Part shown: positions 3,950 to 47,740 of the stretch, one piece after another
Layout: each line of letters begins with the position of its first letter
Position numbering within the stretch: the first letter of the stretch is position 1
Source: an uncultured Eubacteriales bacterium
Lineage (GTDB): Bacteria; Acidobacteriota; Aminicenantia; Aminicenantales; Aminicenantaceae
Direction: 5' to 3'
Assembly (NCBI GenBank): GCA_964538085.1
Contig: CAZIDF010000008.1
Coordinates: 80,466-144,465 of the forward strand
Length of the DNA stretch: 64,000 nucleotides
Notes under the pieces: model-generated
What the model was told of the DNA's origin: nothing
Database searches by the model: none
Seen by the model: only the letters and a program-made list of their open reading frames with translations
Position numbers and translations under genes: made by a program

Positions 3950-4096
3950 TGCATCGAATGTATCTAGCAGATTCCCTTGATACTTTATATAAAAGCAAAA
4001 TTGATGTCAATCCATAATTGCCAAAATTGCATGGGCGGGATGTGTTGGCTTCACAAAGGGTTTAGAACTGATAAGAACAAGGATATTCCAGTCAGT

Positions 4097-4360
4097 TTAT
4101 TGCAGACTTTGAATGGAAGGCTTTCCATCTGTCGGGGCACTGTCCTCGTCATCATCTTCGATTTCCACTTGAACACCCAAAAGTTCAGCCGTTCCCACAT
4201 ATATCTGCTTAAAGGATTTTTTTGATTCTTGGAGTTTAGCCAAACGTTGCCGAGCTTTTTGCAGTTCTTTCTCCATCTCACCATCGATCCCGTTCAGCTG
4301 ATTTTTGGCTTCATTCATGGTTTTTTTGTAGAGTTCTTCTTGTTCTTTGGTTAATGACAT
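4097..4360 (-). CDS. small coiled-coil hypothetical protein with an acidic C-terminus
   Basis: The 87-aa ORF lies directly upstream of the receiver-TonB gene on the same strand, and its stop is 10 nt before the next start. It is KE-rich and helical. The overlapping ORF 4051..4284 was rejected. Confidence 0.4.
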   Translation of the reverse strand: MSLTKEQEELYKKTMNEAKNQLNGIDGEMEKELQKARQRLAKLQESKKSFKQIYVGTAELLGVQVEIEDDDEDSAPTDGKPSIQSLQ

Positions 4361-4369
4361 TTTTTACAC

Positions 4370-6247
4370 CTATTCTGTTTTATTTTTCTTAAATGCGATG
4401 GAAAATGTTTTCCATACTTTAACATTCACACCATCTTTCTGGGCCGGGGAAAACCTCCATTGACGAACAGCCTCATCACACACTTTCTTAAATGCAGGAG
4501 CCGTTTTTGTTGGATCCAAAAAGGCAACATCCAGGACATTCCCGAATTCGGAGATGAGCGCACGAAAAACGACCGTTTCTTCAATCCCCTGTTGAAAGGC
4601 AGCAGGGGGATATTTGGGATTGACCTTTTTCGTAGCCACAGGAGGCACGTCAACGGATTCAATCGGTACCAAATCCCCAGTCTTGATCCTGTCAGAGGTG
4701 TTTTCTGACTGGATGATGTTTTGGACTGTTTCCTTTAACAGAGGTGAGCTCATTTCAACATCCGATTGTCCTAACTCTTCCTCGCCTGTCTCTTCTACCT
4801 CGATAATCTCGAACTGACGTGACTCAGGCTCGGGAGCACCCTCTTGAAGCATAACCTGACGCTGATTCGAAGGCAGCCCTGTTGTGGACATAAACTCAGC
4901 CGTCGATTCTGGCACTGTCTCCGTTTCACCAGAGTTATCATTAGAAGTCGAGTCAATAGCGGCTGGATCCCCCATGACTCCTTCGAGAGAAGACTCACCT
5001 TGCGTTCCCCCTTGATCATTTTCCTCCTGCGTCACTGGAGTGGAGGAATACTCCAAATTTCCCATGGCGGACGTCGAACGCTCCACATCTGAAATCGATT
5101 TCATGCTTTTTGGATCGGAAAGTGTCTTTGGTTTATCCGGTTTCAAGAAATAATATGTAGCTCCAGCGGCAGCGAGGATCACAAAAACAGTCGAGACTAT
5201 CATCAAAGGAAGGGATTTCCTGATCTTTGTAATAAAAGCGAATATATTTTTAGAACCAGATGTTTTTTCTGGTTCTTCAAAATAGTCTTCAAAGATTTTT
5301 TCCTCGGGCTCTTCTCCCTCAGCCTTTTTTTCTTCTCTGCTCTCTTCTTCCGCAACTTCGATTTTCTCTTCCCGTTCCTTTTCGACAGCACCAACTTCAT
5401 ATTTTTTGCTTTCTTCTATCTCTTCTTCTTTCTGAATCAACTCTTCAATGAGCTCTTCTGTTTTCAGTTCTTTTTCCTCAACTGGAGATTCAACCTCAAG
5501 CTCAAGTGGCTGGACAGGTTCCTTATCATGAATCTTTTCAGCCCTCTGGGCCTCTTTTTGGACTACCCGTGCTTCACTTTTCTTTGCGTCTTCCTTTTTT
5601 TGTACCTGTTCATCTTTTTTTTCTGCAGGTTTTTTATCGATATTCAGTCCGAAATCGGAGAGTGCATCCTGAAGCATCTCATCGACTTCGGAAGTTAGAC
5701 CGTGTTTAACAGCTTTTTGTGCTGTCGCCCTGGATTTTTGGTTTCCATCTGCTGGGGACAGATCTTGTTCTTTGATGCTTCTCTCCATTTCCCTCACACT
5801 TTCTTCAATATCAAACGAAGCGGCTTTTTTCTTCTGGATACTCTTTTTAAGGTCTTTAACACTCCCTGATGTCCCGTTTCCCAATAAATCATGGATGGTC
5901 GTCAATAAATCTTCATTTTTGTAGGGCTTTTCGAAAAAAGCAGCGGCGCCGAAGGTTTCGAGCGCTTCAGATCTATAGTGATCCCCTTTATAAAAACCTG
6001 TTGTGATAATGACAGGGGCGCTTTTTTTGGAGTCTTTAGAAATTTTCCGACAAAGATCGAAACCGTGGAGCTTCAGGAGCATAGGCTCAAGGATGACTAA
6101 ATCTGGATTCTCCGACTCAAACATCAGTAATCCTTCGTGCCCATCTTTGGCTGTTACTACTTGAAATCCCTCTGTTTGCAAAGTTTGTAAAAGCGTATTT
6201 AGGGAATTCTCTTCGAATTCAACGACCAATATTTTTTCGTTTCTCAT
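4370..6247 (-). CDS. fusion protein: N-terminal CheY-like receiver domain (Asp to Glu at the phospho-acceptor), long Glu/Lys-rich linker, one TM helix, C-terminal TonB C-terminal domain
   Basis: The receiver is KILVVEFEEN...DLVILEPMLL...VIITTGF...FFEKPY, with E where D57 is expected. The TM segment is LPLMIVSTVFVILAAAGATYYFL. The C-terminus (VNPKYPPAAFQQGIEETVVFRALISEFGNVLDVAFL...AVRQWRFSPAQKDGVNVKV) matches the TonB_C consensus. Confidence 0.65.
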   Translation of the reverse strand: MRNEKILVVEFEENSLNTLLQTLQTEGFQVVTAKDGHEGLLMFESENPDLVILEPMLLKLHGFDLCRKISKDSKKSAPVIITTGFYKGDHYRSEALETFGAAAFFEKPYKNEDLLTTIHDLLGNGTSGSVKDLKKSIQKKKAASFDIEESVREMERSIKEQDLSPADGNQKSRATAQKAVKHGLTSEVDEMLQDALSDFGLNIDKKPAEKKDEQVQKKEDAKKSEARVVQKEAQRAEKIHDKEPVQPLELEVESPVEEKELKTEELIEELIQKEEEIEESKKYEVGAVEKEREEKIEVAEEESREEKKAEGEEPEEKIFEDYFEEPEKTSGSKNIFAFITKIRKSLPLMIVSTVFVILAAAGATYYFLKPDKPKTLSDPKSMKSISDVERSTSAMGNLEYSSTPVTQEENDQGGTQGESSLEGVMGDPAAIDSTSNDNSGETETVPESTAEFMSTTGLPSNQRQVMLQEGAPEPESRQFEIIEVEETGEEELGQSDVEMSSPLLKETVQNIIQSENTSDRIKTGDLVPIESVDVPPVATKKVNPKYPPAAFQQGIEETVVFRALISEFGNVLDVAFLDPTKTAPAFKKVCDEAVRQWRFSPAQKDGVNVKVWKTFSIAFKKNKTE

Positions 6248-18736: not shown

Positions 18737-18829
<93 letters not shown>

Positions 18830-18878
18830 ACCGGAGGATTCCGGTCCTCATTGTAACACTTTTACAACCGGAGTCAAC

Positions 18879-18968
18879 TGGCGGAGGGAGAGGGATTCGA
18901 ACCCCCGTCACGATTGCTCGTAAAGCGGTTTTCAAGACCGCCGCCTTCAACCACTCGGCCATCCCTCC
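18879..18968 (-). tRNA. tRNA-Ser (anticodon TGA)
   Basis: The reverse complement reads GGAGGGATGGCCGAGTGGTTGAAGGCGGCGGTCTTGAAAACCGC...GGGGGTTCGAATCCCTCTCCCTCCGCCA. It has a long variable arm and anticodon TGA. Confidence 0.85.
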
Positions 18969-22427: not shown

Positions 22428-22469
22428 AGAAAAAAAAGGCCGTGCACCCAGCTCCGGCAGGACTCCCCC

Positions 22470-22610
22470 TGCGTTATCCATGCAGTTAGCTCAGGAAAGG
22501 CTGATCTGCCGCACAAGAGACCGCTCTGCTACCGCTGCTACCTCCCGGTCCTGACGGGGTTTACAGAGAGTTCTTCGCGCAGGGCCCATACCTTCAACAC
22601 CACTTACATG
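22470..22610 (-). ncRNA. ffs: signal recognition particle RNA (4.5S/ffs); the exact ends are uncertain
   Basis: The minus-strand sequence CTCTCTGTAAACCCCGTCAGGACCGGGAGGTAGCAGCGGTAGCAGAGCGG matches E. coli 4.5S domain IV (CTCTGTTTACCAGGTCAGGTCCGGAAGGAAGCAGCCAAGGCAGA) nearly position for position. It lies in an ORF-free gap; the overlapping ORFs 22223..22489 and 22608..22817 are spurious. Confidence 0.65.
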
Positions 22611-22820
22611 AACACAGTCCAGAAAAAGCACAGCCTCGGCGGGGAATTCGATCCCACTGTAGCGGATTGTGAGTTACAGGGCACCGCTAGCTCCCCATCT
22701 AGCACGGCCAAGCTATTCATAAAAAAATGCCGTTTCAAAAATCTTTTTTTAAAATTGTCCAAAAGAATATTTTATCATAAACATAGGCTTTTTTTTATGA
22801 AATGTTCTGGGGCATAAAAC

Positions 22821-34804: not shown

Positions 34805-35797
34805 TTATTTTTTTCCTGAATAGGTTTTTATGAACTGGGAGCGAAAATAGGCCTGAGCCTCACCTAGATCCTTCAAGCTCAACTCCTGATTTTTAAACGA
34901 GAGCTCCCCGCGGAAACTTGCAAGATCGGGATATTTATGTTCTGCCATCCACGCTTCCAGCTCACCCAGAAGATTGGCGGTTTCCTCCAATCCTTTTTGA
35001 TAAAAAAGAGAACACACTTGAACAGCAGAGGCCCCGGCAAGTATTTGCTTGACCACGTCGCTGCCATCCTGAATTCCCCCTGATGAGGCCACATCACAAC
35101 CCACCCTCCCAGAAAGAATCCCCACCCAGCGCAAGCTCTGATGGAGAGAACCGGTTCCCTTCATGCTCTTTGTCCGCAGGTTGCGAACATCGATATCCGG
35201 GACCAGGAACCAATTGAATAAAACCACGGCATCACAACCCGCTTCGGCAAGCCTCTTTGTCAAATGAGGAAGAGCGGTGATCTGATGGGTGAGTTTCACA
35301 GCCACAGGAATGCTAATTTCCTTTTTCACTTTTTCCAAAATATCGAGGTGATATCTCTCATAGTCGGCCCCTGAGGAATCGAGATCGATCGGGAGGAAGT
35401 ATATGTTCAATTCCAATCCATCGGCTCCCGCATTCTGAAGTTGCCGGGCAAAACTTGGCCATAGCTTGTTCGATCGACAGTTGATGCTCGCAAAAATCGG
35501 GATGTCCACCTCTTTTTTTGCTTGTTCTATCATTTTGACAAGCTCCTGGGGAGCATATTCAAGGAGCCCACCGTGCCTCATGTAATCCAGAGCTTCCGGA
35601 TAAATATTGATTTCCTCTTCAGGAATTTCTTGTTCGACCTGGAATTGCTCCTCGAATATGGACTTCAGAACGACCGCACCCGCTCCTGAGTCTGCGCAGC
35701 GCTTTATTCCGGCTAAAGATTTGGTCAGTCCAGAGCTTCCGACAATGATCGGATTGCGGAGTTCCAATCCCATATAAGAGGTTTTTAAATCAATCAT
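34805..35797 (-). CDS. dihydroorotate dehydrogenase-family (class 1 PyrD-like) TIM-barrel flavoprotein
   Basis: It has the class-1 DHOD-like N-terminus LELRNPIIVGSSGLTKSLAGIKRCADSGAGAVVLKSI and is 330 aa. There is no adjacent pyrK. Confidence 0.55.
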   Translation of the reverse strand: MIDLKTSYMGLELRNPIIVGSSGLTKSLAGIKRCADSGAGAVVLKSIFEEQFQVEQEIPEEEINIYPEALDYMRHGGLLEYAPQELVKMIEQAKKEVDIPIFASINCRSNKLWPSFARQLQNAGADGLELNIYFLPIDLDSSGADYERYHLDILEKVKKEISIPVAVKLTHQITALPHLTKRLAEAGCDAVVLFNWFLVPDIDVRNLRTKSMKGTGSLHQSLRWVGILSGRVGCDVASSGGIQDGSDVVKQILAGASAVQVCSLFYQKGLEETANLLGELEAWMAEHKYPDLASFRGELSFKNQELSLKDLGEAQAYFRSQFIKTYSGKK

Positions 35798-35931
35798 CTA
35801 TCTCTCCATTCTGAATTATTGTAGCGTATACGCAGTATTCATGTACAGCTTCATGAGCCATTGCCTTGTCCCACCTTGAATGTAGGGTGGGGTGGGTCGG
35901 CTATGTCATTTTGCGATTTAATGCAAATACT

Positions 35932-37353
35932 CTACATGTCAAAGATTTTCCCTGGATTGAGGATATTGTTTGGATCGAAGGCTTTTTTTATTCCCTTCAT
36001 GAGGAGAATGGATTCTTCATCTATAACATAGGAAAGGTAGGTCTTTTTCACGATCCCGATCCCGTGTTCACCAGAAATCACGCCTCCCCTTTCTTTACAA
36101 TCCCGGTATAGCTCCTGTCGGACCTTTTCCAACTTGTGGCCCCAATCTAATTCAGGTAGAGGGATTATCTCGCCATCTTCGAATGCGGCTTTCATGATGT
36201 GCGTGTGCACATTCCCATCAGCAGCATGCCCAAAAGTCGGCAGCCAGATCCCGTATTTCCGGGAAACTTCTTGCACGCGTTTGACATGCAAGGCGATCTC
36301 AGCACGCGGAACTGAGATATCCAAGATTTCTAATGTGTGGGCTTTGATGGCTTCGTAAATTTTGCTGCGGATCTCGAGTACCTGCTGCTGTTTGCTCGGA
36401 CTGTCAGCAACAAAAACATCCAGAGCGTCGTTTTCCATACAAATGGCGGCAACCTGCTCGGATAACTTCTCCATCTGTTCAGCGCTCGATGCATCGAGGA
36501 TGATCAGCAGATAGGTGTTGCCCAGTGTGCTTGGCCATCTTTTGCTCAAGAATTTTTCCGTGATCTGGATGACATCCTTGGGAATAAACTCAACAGCTAA
36601 CGGCATTATTTTTTCTGCGATAAGTTTGGGCACGGTATCGATGGCCCGCTCCAGGTTATCGTATGGAATGATGAGAGAACGAGACATCTGGGCAGATGGC
36701 ATAAGCTGTATGATAGCTTTGGTGATTATTCCCAATGTTCCTTCCGAGCCGATCATCAAATTCAATAAATTATACCCTGTGCTGGATTTCATCAGCTTCC
36801 CACCGAAGTGGACAACGGCCCCGGAAGGCAGAACCACTTCCAATCCTCTCACATAGTTCCGGACGACACCGTATTTGACCGCCCTGGATCCTCCGGCATT
36901 GGTGGCAATCACACCGCCGATCATGGCGCTCTCATCTCCAGGATGTGGGGGGAAAAACAGTCCCTCCTCCTCGACTCGGGGATAAAAATCCATCAGCATA
37001 ACTCCAGATTCAACCACGACCATCTGATTAGGCTTGTCTATCTCGATGATCTTATTCATCCTCTCGAGTGAAAGAACGATGCCTGCATAGGCCGGGACAC
37101 ATCCTCCACACAACCCTGTTGCCCCTCCTCGAGGAGTGACCGGGATCTTATTTTCGTTAGCCAAACGAAGGATACGAGAAACCTCTTCTGTGGATTTGGG
37201 TTTGACCACGACATCCGGTTCCCGGGCTATATCCCTGAGCGAGAATTCATCATGGCCATAATCTCTCATCTTTTCCGGATCACGAATCACATATATTTTC
37301 CCGATTATATTTTCCAGTTCCTGCACGATCCTATCCGTCAAAGAATTGAACAT
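35932..37353 (-). CDS. FAD-linked oxidase (GlcD/D-lactate dehydrogenase family)
   Basis: It has the FAD-binding PCMH motifs IPVTPRGGATGLCGG and is 473 aa. Confidence 0.8.
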   Translation of the reverse strand: MFNSLTDRIVQELENIIGKIYVIRDPEKMRDYGHDEFSLRDIAREPDVVVKPKSTEEVSRILRLANENKIPVTPRGGATGLCGGCVPAYAGIVLSLERMNKIIEIDKPNQMVVVESGVMLMDFYPRVEEEGLFFPPHPGDESAMIGGVIATNAGGSRAVKYGVVRNYVRGLEVVLPSGAVVHFGGKLMKSSTGYNLLNLMIGSEGTLGIITKAIIQLMPSAQMSRSLIIPYDNLERAIDTVPKLIAEKIMPLAVEFIPKDVIQITEKFLSKRWPSTLGNTYLLIILDASSAEQMEKLSEQVAAICMENDALDVFVADSPSKQQQVLEIRSKIYEAIKAHTLEILDISVPRAEIALHVKRVQEVSRKYGIWLPTFGHAADGNVHTHIMKAAFEDGEIIPLPELDWGHKLEKVRQELYRDCKERGGVISGEHGIGIVKKTYLSYVIDEESILLMKGIKKAFDPNNILNPGKIFDM

Positions 37354-41193: not shown

Positions 41194-41310
41194 AAGGGGA
41201 AAGCCTCCTTTTTGGATTTTTTATTCAGGGCATTTCAGGCGCATTATAGTATCATCTCTTCGATTTAACAACCCTTATTGTTTTTAAACGATTATTTCAT
41301 TTTTTCTAGG

Positions 41311-44280: not shown

Positions 44281-45282
44281 CTATTCTCTTGGTCTCAATT
44301 TTAAGCTGTATATTTTACTTTCTTCCGCGCCAAAAAAATACTTATATTTTTCCCCTCCTCTCAGGAAGTCTGCGATTGAAATTTGATTAGCTATAGCATG
44401 CTTGATCGCACGATCGAAAAGATAGAATCCAGGGCTGTAAGACGCATAATCTCGATCATAGGCAATATTATAGAAATACAATATGTCTTCAAACCAAAAA
44501 TTCAACAGGGCGGCTATAAATCTATTTTCGAAATACAGCATGTTTAATTCCACCCAACTCTCGGAAGAAAAGTGATCGGTAAGAGTTTGGAAAAAATCGG
44601 ACATCTCTCGTTTCTGCCAAAATTCCCGTTTCGAGAGATTGCTCCTTTTGTGCAGAGATATGAACTCTTGGATGGCAGGCTTCAATTCCTCGGACGTTTT
44701 GATTTGCTCATACCGAATATGCCCTAATGATTCCAATTTCCGGATTTTTCTGCGAAGTTCATGTCGATTTTTTCGGCCGAGGTTCGTGACATATTCCTGG
44801 TAGGAGCCCGGCAGTCTCAAGATCGGGACACTTTCCCCCTCCTTTATTTCGCAGGTCATATTGTGTTCGTTTGCCAATCGAGGGAGGACCGACAAAGTGG
44901 GAGAAGATCCGGGAATGTTGATGAACTCTGCATGAGAATATTCGGGAATATTCCTTTGCAAATGATCCAGCAAGTCTCCATAGAACTCATCATGTTTTTC
45001 TGCATTCGAGAAAAAATCGCAGTAATCCGTCACTTCATGACTGGCAATAAATCCAAGCACATTGTTGGATTCCATCAAAGGGGCGATTCCGACAAGAGAT
45101 TCCGACCTATCTCGAAAAAATAATATTTCGAGTTCTCTATCCCGTCCAAAATTTTGCCACCAGGCATCGAACCACTGATGTGCAAGAAACGGGCTGTTCT
45201 GACCGGAACAAGATAGAAGCGCATTCCACTGCTGCCTGGTTTCGATGAACCTTTCATATCTGGCTATCCGCTCGACTTCCAT
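44281..45282 (-). CDS. Fem/CelD/BioF2-like acyl- or aminoacyl-transferase (GNAT-fold, Acetyltransf_6-like)
   Basis: It is 333 aa, and family resemblance (FemAB-like fold) is judged from length and pattern only. It lies immediately upstream of the GT4 gene on the same strand with a 5-nt gap. Confidence 0.45.
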   Translation of the reverse strand: MEVERIARYERFIETRQQWNALLSCSGQNSPFLAHQWFDAWWQNFGRDRELEILFFRDRSESLVGIAPLMESNNVLGFIASHEVTDYCDFFSNAEKHDEFYGDLLDHLQRNIPEYSHAEFINIPGSSPTLSVLPRLANEHNMTCEIKEGESVPILRLPGSYQEYVTNLGRKNRHELRRKIRKLESLGHIRYEQIKTSEELKPAIQEFISLHKRSNLSKREFWQKREMSDFFQTLTDHFSSESWVELNMLYFENRFIAALLNFWFEDILYFYNIAYDRDYASYSPGFYLFDRAIKHAIANQISIADFLRGGEKYKYFFGAEESKIYSLKLRPRE

Positions 45283-45496
45283 GAATTTTCTATTTTAATA
45301 AATTGGGGACAGGATATCCATTCACCAATTAGATTGATTTGCCCTAAGGGAAAAAATTGAGAATGTTAGCCTGGCCAACCCACTCCCACCCTGACATTAA
45401 AGGAACGACAAAGCAGCTGCTCATACAGCTTTTATTTGTCTGCCGCGAATGAGCTACGATGAAGCTGATACTGTGAAATGAATAAATTTGTCATTG

Positions 45497-45631
45497 TTAG
45501 CCTGAATCATTTTACAGGTTTTGATTGCTGTAGCGGCGAGGAGATGGCTCATGAGTTGTATTATGTATACTGCGATTGGGCCATGACGATGCCGATGCAG
45601 TGAGATTAGCCTGTAAAATGATTCAGGCTAG
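45497..45631. repeat. inverted repeat: 22-nt arms (45497..45518 and 45610..45631, 21/22 match) flanking about 91 nt
   Basis: Arm 1 is TTAGCCTGAATCATTTTACAGG; arm 2 is CCTGTAAAATGATTCAGGCTAG. Additional TGTTAGCCTG/ATTAGCCTG copies occur at 45371, 45493 and 45605. The element is intergenic. Confidence 0.85.
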
Positions 45632-47661
45632 AACATGTAGGCGAATTTGAGGAACAGAGTATGCCCCTGTCTTCCTCTCTCGCCGAATTCCCCTGTTCCC
45701 TTTTGGTAAGCGACTTGAATGGAGCCGAACGGAGGCTGGAAACGGTAGACAAAAAGAACCTGTACATTGCTCTTGTCGATCACGGTGTTCAGTTGATAGA
45801 AAAGTTTGATGAACAGATCGTTCGTGAAATAATTCGTAGCACGAACGACATGAATCCATGTGCTCTCATTTTCCGGATCAGGATCGAACAGCACGCGTTC
45901 TAATCCGTAAGAAACCGAAAGGTCTTGTGTCAGTTTGAAGTTGACATTCCCCTCGAGAAGCTGGAAATCCCTATCATAATTTTTCCCGAAGCTGTAGGCG
46001 ACAGAAGCATGCTGCCACTCTCGGGTGTTATAACCGATACCGATCTCACTCTGCCGGTTCCGGAATTCTTTCTCATACAACTTGAACTCCTCATGATGTT
46101 CCAGTGTGACAGAAAATTTATTTTTCAAATCGAAACCCACTTCTTGATCGATCTTCCAGCTGCGCAACGTTCCGTCCAGGCCCCAATAGATGTTGTAGTT
46201 GGAACTATACTCGATGCGCTGGAATCCCCAATTCTTAGGAAAGAACGTCTTTTCCACGGCCGAATCCAGTTCTCTCCGGTTGTCATCCCGGATAAATCCC
46301 ACTTCGTTAGCATTGTCAGCAAAGTTTCTCCCCAGTTGGGTGTACCGTATATGAATATGAAAGGTAGTGGTGTCATAACTGGGACGGAGGAAGAAAGCGA
46401 TGTTATCGGTATTATGGTCTCCATAACTCAGGGCAAACTGGCCGGTGAACTTGAATGTATCCGAAAAGTAGAGGGCTGTATCGATACCAGTAGTGCCCCA
46501 ATTTTTGCCATTGACGAGCTTGTTTGCCGCGATGAAACCGATGTTCGAGGATTTCATCACATCCTTTTTCAGGCGGAATACCGTGAAATTGGCCGAATCC
46601 TCGCCTCTTTCTTCATCTTCTCTTGTCTGGGTAGTTAACCCCTGAAACTCAAAGCCCCCGACCTTCCCGTAGACTTTGGCACCCCCATAAATATCTGAAA
46701 TTCTCCTTGAATAGAACAACTGGATTCGCTGCTGGTAGATCTCGCTCCCCTCCAGGAAAAAGTTTCTCTTTTCTGGAAGAAAGGTTTCGAAACGGGTAAG
46801 GTTGATGACCTCTTGATCCGCCTCGACAGTGGCAAAATCAGGATTGATGCTAAGGTTCCCTGAGACCGTCTGAGAAAAGGCATACCGGGCATCCACACCC
46901 ACATCCGCTGTCGTTTTTTGCCCTTCCTGTGCTTTAGCGATGATATGGGGAATGATCTGGAATTTTTTCTCAGATTTCTTCAGATCCAGGCCCTTCAATT
47001 CGCCGAATTGGGAAACCTTGTATGCAGATTCCAAAGGCCCTGTCCAGAAGCTGAATTCCAGTTTTCGGGGAATCCCACGTCCCAAGCTCAATCCCCACGT
47101 TTTTCCATCTCCCGGTTTGTATTTGATACTGCTGAGCTCGACGGCAAACTCAGCCGTCCACCCAAATTCGGCTCGATGTGCTCCTGACTTCCAAATTCCA
47201 TCCCAGGTGGAATCGAATGTACGGCCGTTTTCCGTGATTCGGCCATCCCATTGGGTGCCCAGCAGATTGGTACACACATAATAACACGTTCTCCGGTCGT
47301 GAAAAGTATCGAGGAGAACATACACCGAGTCATCCGAACGGATGTCGGTATCCCTCTTTGTCATCCGTCCCACTATTTTATCCGGCTCCGAATCGTAACA
47401 CCAAAAACCGATATAGATATATCTGTCATCGAACAGGACTTTGACAACAGTCCTTTCTGAAGCTGATTTTCCCTTTTCGGGCTGCAGCTGGATAAAATCC
47501 GTCGCTTCAGGCGCAGATTCCCAAATCGATTCATTCAAAAGGCCATCCACTAGAATGGGCGAATCGGTTTTTATCCCTAACAACTCTTTGGATTTCCATT
47601 GGGCAGCCAGGATCGAAGACAAGAGAAAGAAACAGGCCAAAATGGAAAAGAGCTTTTTCAT
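45628..47661 (-). CDS. outer-membrane protein with N-terminal CBM9-like (DUF5916-type) domain
   Basis: The signal peptide MKKLFSILACFFLLSSILAA is present. The N-terminal ILVDGLLNESIWESAPEATDF...VKVLFDDRYIYIGFWCYD resembles CBM9/DOMON-like modules. The C-terminus FAYMF is a typical barrel terminus. Confidence 0.45.
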   Translation of the reverse strand: MKKLFSILACFFLLSSILAAQWKSKELLGIKTDSPILVDGLLNESIWESAPEATDFIQLQPEKGKSASERTVVKVLFDDRYIYIGFWCYDSEPDKIVGRMTKRDTDIRSDDSVYVLLDTFHDRRTCYYVCTNLLGTQWDGRITENGRTFDSTWDGIWKSGAHRAEFGWTAEFAVELSSIKYKPGDGKTWGLSLGRGIPRKLEFSFWTGPLESAYKVSQFGELKGLDLKKSEKKFQIIPHIIAKAQEGQKTTADVGVDARYAFSQTVSGNLSINPDFATVEADQEVINLTRFETFLPEKRNFFLEGSEIYQQRIQLFYSRRISDIYGGAKVYGKVGGFEFQGLTTQTREDEERGEDSANFTVFRLKKDVMKSSNIGFIAANKLVNGKNWGTTGIDTALYFSDTFKFTGQFALSYGDHNTDNIAFFLRPSYDTTTFHIHIRYTQLGRNFADNANEVGFIRDDNRRELDSAVEKTFFPKNWGFQRIEYSSNYNIYWGLDGTLRSWKIDQEVGFDLKNKFSVTLEHHEEFKLYEKEFRNRQSEIGIGYNTREWQHASVAYSFGKNYDRDFQLLEGNVNFKLTQDLSVSYGLERVLFDPDPENESTWIHVVRATNYFTNDLFIKLFYQLNTVIDKSNVQVLFVYRFQPPFGSIQVAYQKGTGEFGERGRQGHTLFLKFAYMF

Positions 47662-47740
47662 TTTTTTCCCAAATAGTCTGACAATGTAGCACAAATAGTA
47701 TTCAAGGACAACCGCTCAACACTCGCAATGAAGAGCGATT

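Follow-up and report, generated by a model that had tools for sequence, protein, structure and literature searches.

Among the bacterial miniature inverted-repeat transposable elements (MITEs) are the Correia elements of Neisseria, and the ERIC (enterobacterial repetitive intergenic consensus) or IRU (intergenic repeat unit) sequences are imperfect palindromes of enterobacteria. The Aminicenantes are uncultured and are known from metagenomes alone. Here we analyse an intergenic foldback element in a 64-kb stretch of DNA (hereafter the window, i.e. the whole stretch of 64,000 nucleotides from contig CAZIDF010000008.1) whose host is a Candidatus Aminicenantes bacterium. The element is a 135-nt imperfect hairpin in the spacer between a DUF5916 gene and a GNAT gene. 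In our judgement it is probably one copy of a non-autonomous, non-coding, hairpin-forming repeat family of the MITE type or of the REPIN type (doublets of repetitive extragenic palindromes, REP, that form hairpins), residing in intergenic spacers of Candidatus Aminicenantes. The family is repeated and non-coding, orthologous sites have it, lack it or hold it in rearranged form, and compensatory change maintains its hairpin.

The likeness to Correia and ERIC sequences, compared by general description and not by sequence, is in the size (~100-150 bp), the absence of coding capacity and the terminal inverted repeats that fold the whole unit as a hairpin. It extends to the position, i.e. intergenic, next to gene ends and in either orientation, and to the pattern of presence and absence among related genomes, with internal indels, nested copies and, in one clean case, a short flanking duplication. 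In terms of what defines a MITE, the element is short (135 bp, where MITEs are under ~600 bp), non-coding and bounded by terminal inverted repeats; it has several copies per genome at unrelated sites, their count being small over the loci searched, and filled as well as empty orthologous sites. It differs from both described groups in its host phylum (Aminicenantes/Acidobacteriota), in a core that is better conserved than the arms, in arms that behave as exchangeable modules and in a markedly one-stranded pairing. Moreover, the flanks look like 4-bp TWAG/TTAA, whereas those of Correia elements are TA.

The REPINs and the REP sequences of bacterial interspersed mosaic elements, which are mobilised by RAYTs (REP-associated tyrosine transposases; PMC3116915, PMC3337134), share with the element the mosaic units, the singlet, arms-only remnants and the position at gene ends, as well as two inverted palindromes that form a hairpin and are presumed to act single-stranded. 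However, REPIN spacers are conserved as structure, not as sequence (PMC3337134), whereas the corresponding core is sequence-conserved in the Aminicenantes element, which also has one clean 4-bp duplication, unexpected for REPINs, and no fixed flank of the GTAG type. A REPIN family would moreover number tens to hundreds of copies and include a cognate RAYT gene with REPs on its flanks. The attC sites of integrons are a further system with similar traits: they are imperfect palindromes of 60-140 nt that stand directly after stop codons and are recognised on one strand as folded DNA, and the motifs GTTAGCC/GGCTAAC of the element resemble the attC core sites GTTRRRY/RYYYAAC. An identity with attC was nevertheless rejected, since the order of the core-site motifs is reversed, i.e. 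the Aminicenantes unit has GTT at its beginning and AAC at its end, whichever strand is read. In addition, its neighbourhood holds no cassette array or integrase, and its copies are also found upstream of genes and in both orientations.

The original prediction had pointed to the repeat-rich spacer 45283-45640 and to near-perfect inverted 22-mers that bracket 91 bp, which was confirmed. The 22-mer TTAGCCTGAATCATTTTACAGG at 45497-45518 (+ strand) has a reverse-complement partner at 45610-45631 with 21 of the 22 positions matched and one mismatch; the spacing is 91 bp, and a comparable arm pair was found in 0 of 100 shuffles. The terminal inverted repeats consist of CCTGAATCATTTTACAGG plus TAG/CTA. 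The repeat goes on inward as imperfect 54-nt arms (45498-45551 and 45577-45630, 72% complementary), and the arms make up the outer stem of the hairpin. The spacer had been placed between a gene end and the promoter side of a Fem-like gene, and so it is: the hairpin begins at the TAG stop of the minus-strand DUF5916 gene, 213 bp upstream of the start of the GNAT gene at 45282. Of the four 10-mer cores that had been claimed, three stand, all of them TTAGCCTG on the + strand (45366, 45497 and 45606), and the fourth exists only as the variant CTAGCCTG on the - strand (45624-45631). The parts of the element are the following.

45496 to 45630, + strand (the best-folding strand): full-length foldback element, a 135-nt imperfect hairpin, defined by the score of the covariance model R1, by the RNA fold and by the common structure of seven full copies.
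45497 to 45518, + strand: left terminal inverted repeat, with the sequence TTAGCCTGAATCATTTTACAGG, which on its own is weakly palindromic (AGCCTG..CAGGTT), as read from the sequence.
45610 to 45631, + strand: right terminal inverted repeat, which together with 45606-45609 makes a small palindrome, TTAGCCTG-N10-CAGGCTAG, and holds the TAG stop of the DUF5916 gene (45628-45630, - strand).
45519 to 45609, + strand: conserved core with inner helices, a purine-rich internal loop and a GUAU/AUAC apical stem, from the alignment of 16 core copies and from pair counts.

The folding check that had been proposed gave a clear result, as the RNA fold of the element lies far from that of shuffled sequences on both strands (z = -10.9 on +, -9.1 on -), and the same holds for the DNA fold (z = -9.5 and -8.6). 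The relatives' contigs or loci compared with the window are labelled L001-L027 below, and R1 was built from seven full copies. In these seven copies 91.4% of the 45 pairs are paired, and 12 pairs are changed on both sides, i.e. in a compensatory manner. This level of pairing and compensation was reached in 0 of 500 shuffles, and slid controls were 24-44% paired. Moreover, a 1-nt deletion in one arm is mirrored by a deletion in the opposite arm. The apical stem GUAU/AUAC is kept and its loop is variable. The core is the most conserved part across the 16 aligned core copies and persists even next to different outer arms.

Relatives share the gene order TPR/DUF5107 - DUF5916 - spacer - GNAT - GT4, and the relatives of the GNAT protein come from metagenome-assembled genomes of Candidatus Aminicenantes. 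Twenty-three orthologous spacers were gathered; a scan of a metagenome collection gave six loci, and more came from a scan of a genome collection, from a protein search and from the contigs encoding the proteins. It is conspicuous that these spacers do not represent a single sequence in diverged versions but a mosaic of exchangeable modules. The full hairpin is found in the window, L003, L007, L014 and L009/L019, and L016 has two full copies in tandem. In L004, L008, L015, L022 and L027 the core is kept and the stop-proximal arm is swapped for a C-rich module B (CCTGACCCTCCACCCC...), and in L017 the same core stands between module B and its inverted partner, module C, i.e. between other outer arms. 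In the closest relative, L013 (GNAT protein 79% identical), modules B and C enclose a diverged core alone, the conserved core being absent, and L026 is an empty site, a 59-nt spacer without the element. L002, assembled independently for the same strain from a different sequencing run, is identical over the whole intergenic region; an assembly artefact can therefore be excluded.

The spacer thus described appears to be a hot spot for such insertions, with the element nested within it. L005 and L020 carry an extra insert of a different, AT-rich kind (L005:5725-5803, L020:6340-6440), nested in the stop-proximal arm and with a perfect inverted repeat of 15 bp of its own (TAAAAACTGTTGATG in L005). 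This insert has the end CCTGAATTATTCATAAAAA in common with the copies of L015 and L008 and seems to represent a longer-armed subfamily. Two independent short-read contigs are broken inside the spacer, L001 (which begins 48 nt before the GNAT gene) and L023 (which begins in module B), as is expected if the modules are repeated in those genomes. In L025, a contig with the same GNAT protein as L022, the DUF5916 position (3984-5867) is called as two minus-strand open reading frames (ORFs) without Pfam matches, which may be a gene-calling artefact or a disrupted gene.

In the window itself two further modules adjoin the intact hairpin.

45394 to 45479, + strand: second copy of the core, degenerate and arranged in tandem with the main hairpin, with a small terminator-like hairpin (45415-45430) at its apex; it is matched by R1 over model positions 26-110 (E = 0.01-0.05) and is a homologue of the inner part of the L013 spacer.
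45366 to 45404, + strand: module C, TTAGCCTGGCCAACCCACTCCCACCCTGACATTAAAGGA, the inverted partner of module B, unpaired in the window, from module comparison and the alignment of B with C.

The TTAGCCTG cores recur because they are the shared ends of the modules of the family, i.e. of the intact hairpin and of the remains of an older copy at 45366-45479. In the whole window 5 occurrences of TTAGCCTG were observed vs 1.18 expected, and AGCCTG-N10-CAGGCT occurs once. A 131-bp direct repeat in the spacer is explained by module C and the degenerate core standing beside the intact hairpin.

Copies at other places were searched for with blastn, R1 and nhmmer profiles over the window and ~300 kb of related loci. 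The window holds a second locus of the family.

About 35810 to 35905, - strand: decayed family copy with a terminal CTGAATTATT, a core at 35820-35869 and a GGGTGGGGTGGG module, found by nhmmer, blastn and R1.

The core profile of nhmmer matched this copy with E = 3.3e-6, blastn matches to the cores of other loci had E values down to 5e-6, and R1 gave E = 0.18. The copy is placed between the DHO_dh gene (34805-35797) and an FAD-oxidase gene (35932-37353) and no longer forms a hairpin (fold z about -1). We note that the same DHO_dh/FAD-oxidase spacer contains arm-like hairpins in relatives (L026:20871-20898, L015 and L009).

Family members were found in at least three other intergenic regions of the related genomes, and L022, L015 and L008 have two loci each, as does the window (45.5 kb and 35.8 kb). 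One copy lies upstream of a gene for an SSF transporter (L022:19-93, with an arm or end at 201-227). Others lie between a second GNAT gene (GNAT308) and the transketolase gene (L015:14079-14220, an example of the 25-27-nt arms of other copies, and L008:14074-14268), and here the orientation to the genes is opposite. The insertions of L015 and of L008/L020 are at two different points of this same spacer. L020:10769-10802 is an arms-only hairpin, and arm remnants are seen in L026 (480-506), L017 and L023. At the GNAT308-transketolase and SSF spacers the window carries no insertion, unlike L015, L008, L020 and L022, where these spacers are occupied. A search of viral contigs with one arm gave no matches, and a 16-mer of the core gave five that extend over 16-22 nt only, i.e. 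chance matches. The original prediction, which had left a MITE-like element and a large regulatory or terminator hairpin side by side, is hence answered in favour of the former: there is a second, partial copy 10 kb away and there are members in three other intergenic regions of relatives. A single-copy sequence without structural conservation, named there as the contrary outcome, is not what the data show, given the nhmmer match of the second window copy and the compensatory changes in the hairpin.

As a separate observation, 'empty' sites (window 41194-41310 and L026:9947-10001) retain CCTGAAT(A/T)A, the first 9 nt of the element arm. These could be excision footprints, or could reflect a target preference that resembles the element's own end.

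The identity of the element does not follow the identity of its host, as the two are out of step. The window element is 92-93% identical to the L003 and L014 elements, with flanking GNAT genes at 73-77%, and the elements of L014 and L009 are 69% identical, with GNAT genes at 83%. A clean target duplication is seen in the GNAT308-transketolase spacer, where L015 reads ATAAG[CCTGG...CAGG]TAAGTTGTT and L020 and L008 have the uninterrupted ATAAGTTGTT, i.e. a duplication of 4 bp (TAAG). The window copy is flanked by TTAG on one side and by CTAG on the other, and the downstream copy of L016 has apparent TTAA/TTAA flanks, the right one deduced from L009. Owing to nesting, the insertion junctions at the main site cannot be reconstructed.

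Taken as a mobile element, the repeat would be moved in trans by a transposase encoded elsewhere, and the most likely route would be a cut-and-paste insertion that duplicates ~4 bp of a TWAG/TTAA-like target. The intact copy in the window would then adjoin the remains of an older one. A DUF5916 mRNA reading through the stop would gain a 21-bp perfect stem at its 3' end, which could block exonucleases or be cut by RNase III; any such effect on the message would be a by-product of the insertion.

Several points weigh against a MITE/REPIN-type family moved in this way. Repetition is documented on a small scale, at two loci of the 64-kb window and at four spacer sites within ~370 kb of mostly syntenic DNA of the relatives. 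All extra sites are within the same ~20-kb syntenic block, and a part of the same picture could arise if neighbouring spacers underwent local duplication or gene conversion. Target duplication is seen in one clean, non-palindromic case; TTAG/CTAG and TTAA/TTAA are compatible with it and palindromic, and the other junctions are blurred by nesting. A transposase domain is absent from the nine window proteins scanned (~39-53 kb) and from the genes within 10 kb either side in the syntenic loci, as had been said for the vicinity of the repeat, and an autonomous partner element was not seen in the loci examined. It is unusual for MITEs and REPINs that the core exceeds the arms in conservation, a hint that the core has a function of its own. 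Finally, the one-strand hairpin that travels with the element is at odds with simple cut-and-paste and suggests a step in which a single strand is read.

The strand asymmetry behind this last point is conspicuous. The window element scores 142.6 bits with R1 on the + strand vs 54.4 bits on the - strand, and its RNA fold energy is about -73 to -74 kcal/mol vs about -51 to -52. There are 7 G.U wobbles on + vs 0 on -; most other copies have 4-9 vs 0-2, L016_1 has 4 vs 1, and the exceptions are L013, where the preference is reversed, and L017, where the difference is small. The wobbles at columns 24/114 and 32/106 are invariant in all seven full copies. At the main site the better-pairing strand runs antisense to both flanking genes, but in L015 and L008 it is gene-sense; therefore it follows the element, not transcription. 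A mutational bias was judged unlikely as the cause, as the favoured strand goes with the element even where the orientation to the genes flips. The asymmetry may have been inherited from a master copy. By analogy, pairing on one strand would be expected of elements that are read as single strands (REP/RAYT, the IS200/IS605 insertion sequences, attC). Because of the invariant wobbles, the one-strand pairing and the retention of the core with interchangeable outer arms, the core could conceivably be a functional single-stranded structure, i.e. the substrate of an undescribed Aminicenantes system of single-strand transposition or recombination, or an element-borne small RNA used by the host or by the element; we consider this a doubtful proposition, if one worth stating.

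The same asymmetry gives some weight to the alternative that a tyrosine HUH transposase (RAYT-like) mobilises the repeat in the form of single-stranded DNA, as an element of the REPIN/REP or IS200/IS605 type, with the arms as REP-like palindromes and the pair as a hairpin recognised on one strand. Each arm is indeed a small palindrome, TTAGCCTG-N10-CAGGCTAG, the doublet folds strongly (z = -10.9), the wobbles are confined to one strand, including the two invariant pairs, the favoured strand goes with the element and not with the genes, and arms-only forms exist (L020:10769-10802). However, the L015 copy has its clean 4-bp direct duplication TAAG, and REPIN and IS200-type families make none; the core is the best-conserved part here, as opposed to the REPIN spacers (PMC3337134); the tetranucleotide of the left flank is not fixed (TTAG, TAAG, TTGA, ATGA, TTTG, TTTT); and no RAYT gene was seen in the loci examined. 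We therefore regard an element of this single-strand type as unlikely.

Still less probable is a cis-acting RNA of the host that is vertically inherited and under selection at this locus, for instance one that serves the DUF5916 mRNA as a 3' untranslated-region stabiliser, terminator or processing site, or one that regulates the GNAT-glycosyltransferase genes. Such a role would agree with the start of the hairpin exactly at the stop codon, with the conserved gene order and the related hairpin in the same spacer of many relatives, with the covarying structure and with the weak terminator-like hairpin (45415-45430) on the gene strand. A scan for intrinsic terminators, however, found no U-tract at the large hairpin and detected only this weak stem of 5-6 bp, on both strands and inside the degenerate copy. 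The gene-sense strand folds worse by ~22 kcal/mol, the element is absent in L026, coreless in the closest relative L013 and doubled in L016, the same sequences stand beside unrelated genes, also in the opposite orientation, and element divergence is incongruent with gene divergence. As the primary nature of the repeat, a large terminator or regulatory hairpin is not supported, since the better-folding strand is antisense to both genes and orthologous spacers may lack the element, have something else in its place or hold it twice.

Strand-specific wobbles with invariant G.U pairs, a core conserved beyond the flanking genes, and an apical GUAU/AUAC stem that is conserved around a variable loop would also suit a multi-copy small RNA gene read from the + strand, in which the core is the functional RNA and the arms are merely flanking. 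We find this very improbable. No promoter or terminator travels with the element: the sole internal promoter-like hexamer pair (45589-45560) is on the - strand, and there is no internal terminator-like site. At the main site the strand that folds better runs antisense to both neighbours, and copies that are truncated or consist of arms only are common. An Rfam scan of the whole window at gathering thresholds had no match near the region, and a permissive scan of 45100-45900 with E up to 10 gave only chance-level matches to eukaryotic snoRNAs.

The weakest alternative, a small Cys-rich protein or selenoprotein from the + strand ORF 45478-45603 (41 aa, ...DCCSGEEMAHELYYVYCDW...), can be dismissed almost entirely: the core translations are alike across copies and L004 has TGA in place of the second Cys codon, but in most copies a stop lies close upstream and a start codon is lacking, stops and frameshifts occur at differing places, an arm indel is compensated, there is no codon periodicity, and a protein database search found no homologue of the 41-aa ORF. 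In-frame stops or frameshifts are present in L004, L005, L007, L008, L017, L020 and L022, i.e. an in-frame TAA in L005, an in-frame TGA at three different positions in other copies, and frameshifts in L004 and L022. In L003, L007, L008, L009 and L022b no start codon lies between the upstream in-frame stop and the 'DCC' motif, and the substitutions in the core copies are spread evenly over the codon positions (19/20/23). The selenocysteine idea, which came from the TGT-to-TGA change in L004, was dropped with the coding reading. Read-through of the DUF5916 TAG was also considered and rejected, there being 56 open codons in the window and an immediate stop in L003.

A mobile repeat family of the MITE/REPIN type would make the element a fairly ordinary miniature mobile element in a phylum where none seems to have been described; a targeted literature search (Aminicenantes and MITE) found no description of Aminicenantes repeat families. 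Once catalogued, the family would explain contig breaks and variable spacers in Aminicenantes assemblies, would give markers for strain typing and would point to an active transposase. The one-stranded pairing together with the conserved core poses a small puzzle about the recognition of such elements. All that the neighbouring genes would gain from the insertion is a strong stem at the 3' end of the DUF5916 message, and it brings no new biology to the GNAT-glycosyltransferase cluster.

The surroundings of the repeat are as follows.

45628 to 47694, - strand: upstream flanking gene, a DUF5916/CBM9 outer-membrane protein, whose stop abuts or overlaps the end of the element.
45283 to 45345, - strand: native spacer outside the repeat, found in all relatives including the empty site of L026; it contains a palindromic block of 30 bp (45301-45330) that is conserved and, shortly upstream of the GNAT ATG, a promoter-like TGGATA-17-TAAAAT.
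44281 to 45282, - strand: downstream flanking gene, a GNAT protein (Acetyltransf_6, CelD/BcsL-like), with a faint FemAB_like match in homologues.

The 30-bp block of the native spacer, AATTGGGGACAGGATATCCATTCACCAATT, is an imperfect palindrome. It overlaps the promoter-like sequence, which ends ~9 nt before the ATG, and no Shine-Dalgarno sequence is present. To judge from its sequence, the block resembles an operator or promoter, the start being leaderless-like. The spacers of L011 and, weakly, of L006 hold a further, inverted copy right after the DUF5916 stop, so that the two copies bracket the whole spacer. Unrelated to the repeat, the minus strand of the window (22440-22707 and 18741-18968) also has a large-type bacterial signal recognition particle RNA (178 bits) and two tRNA genes.

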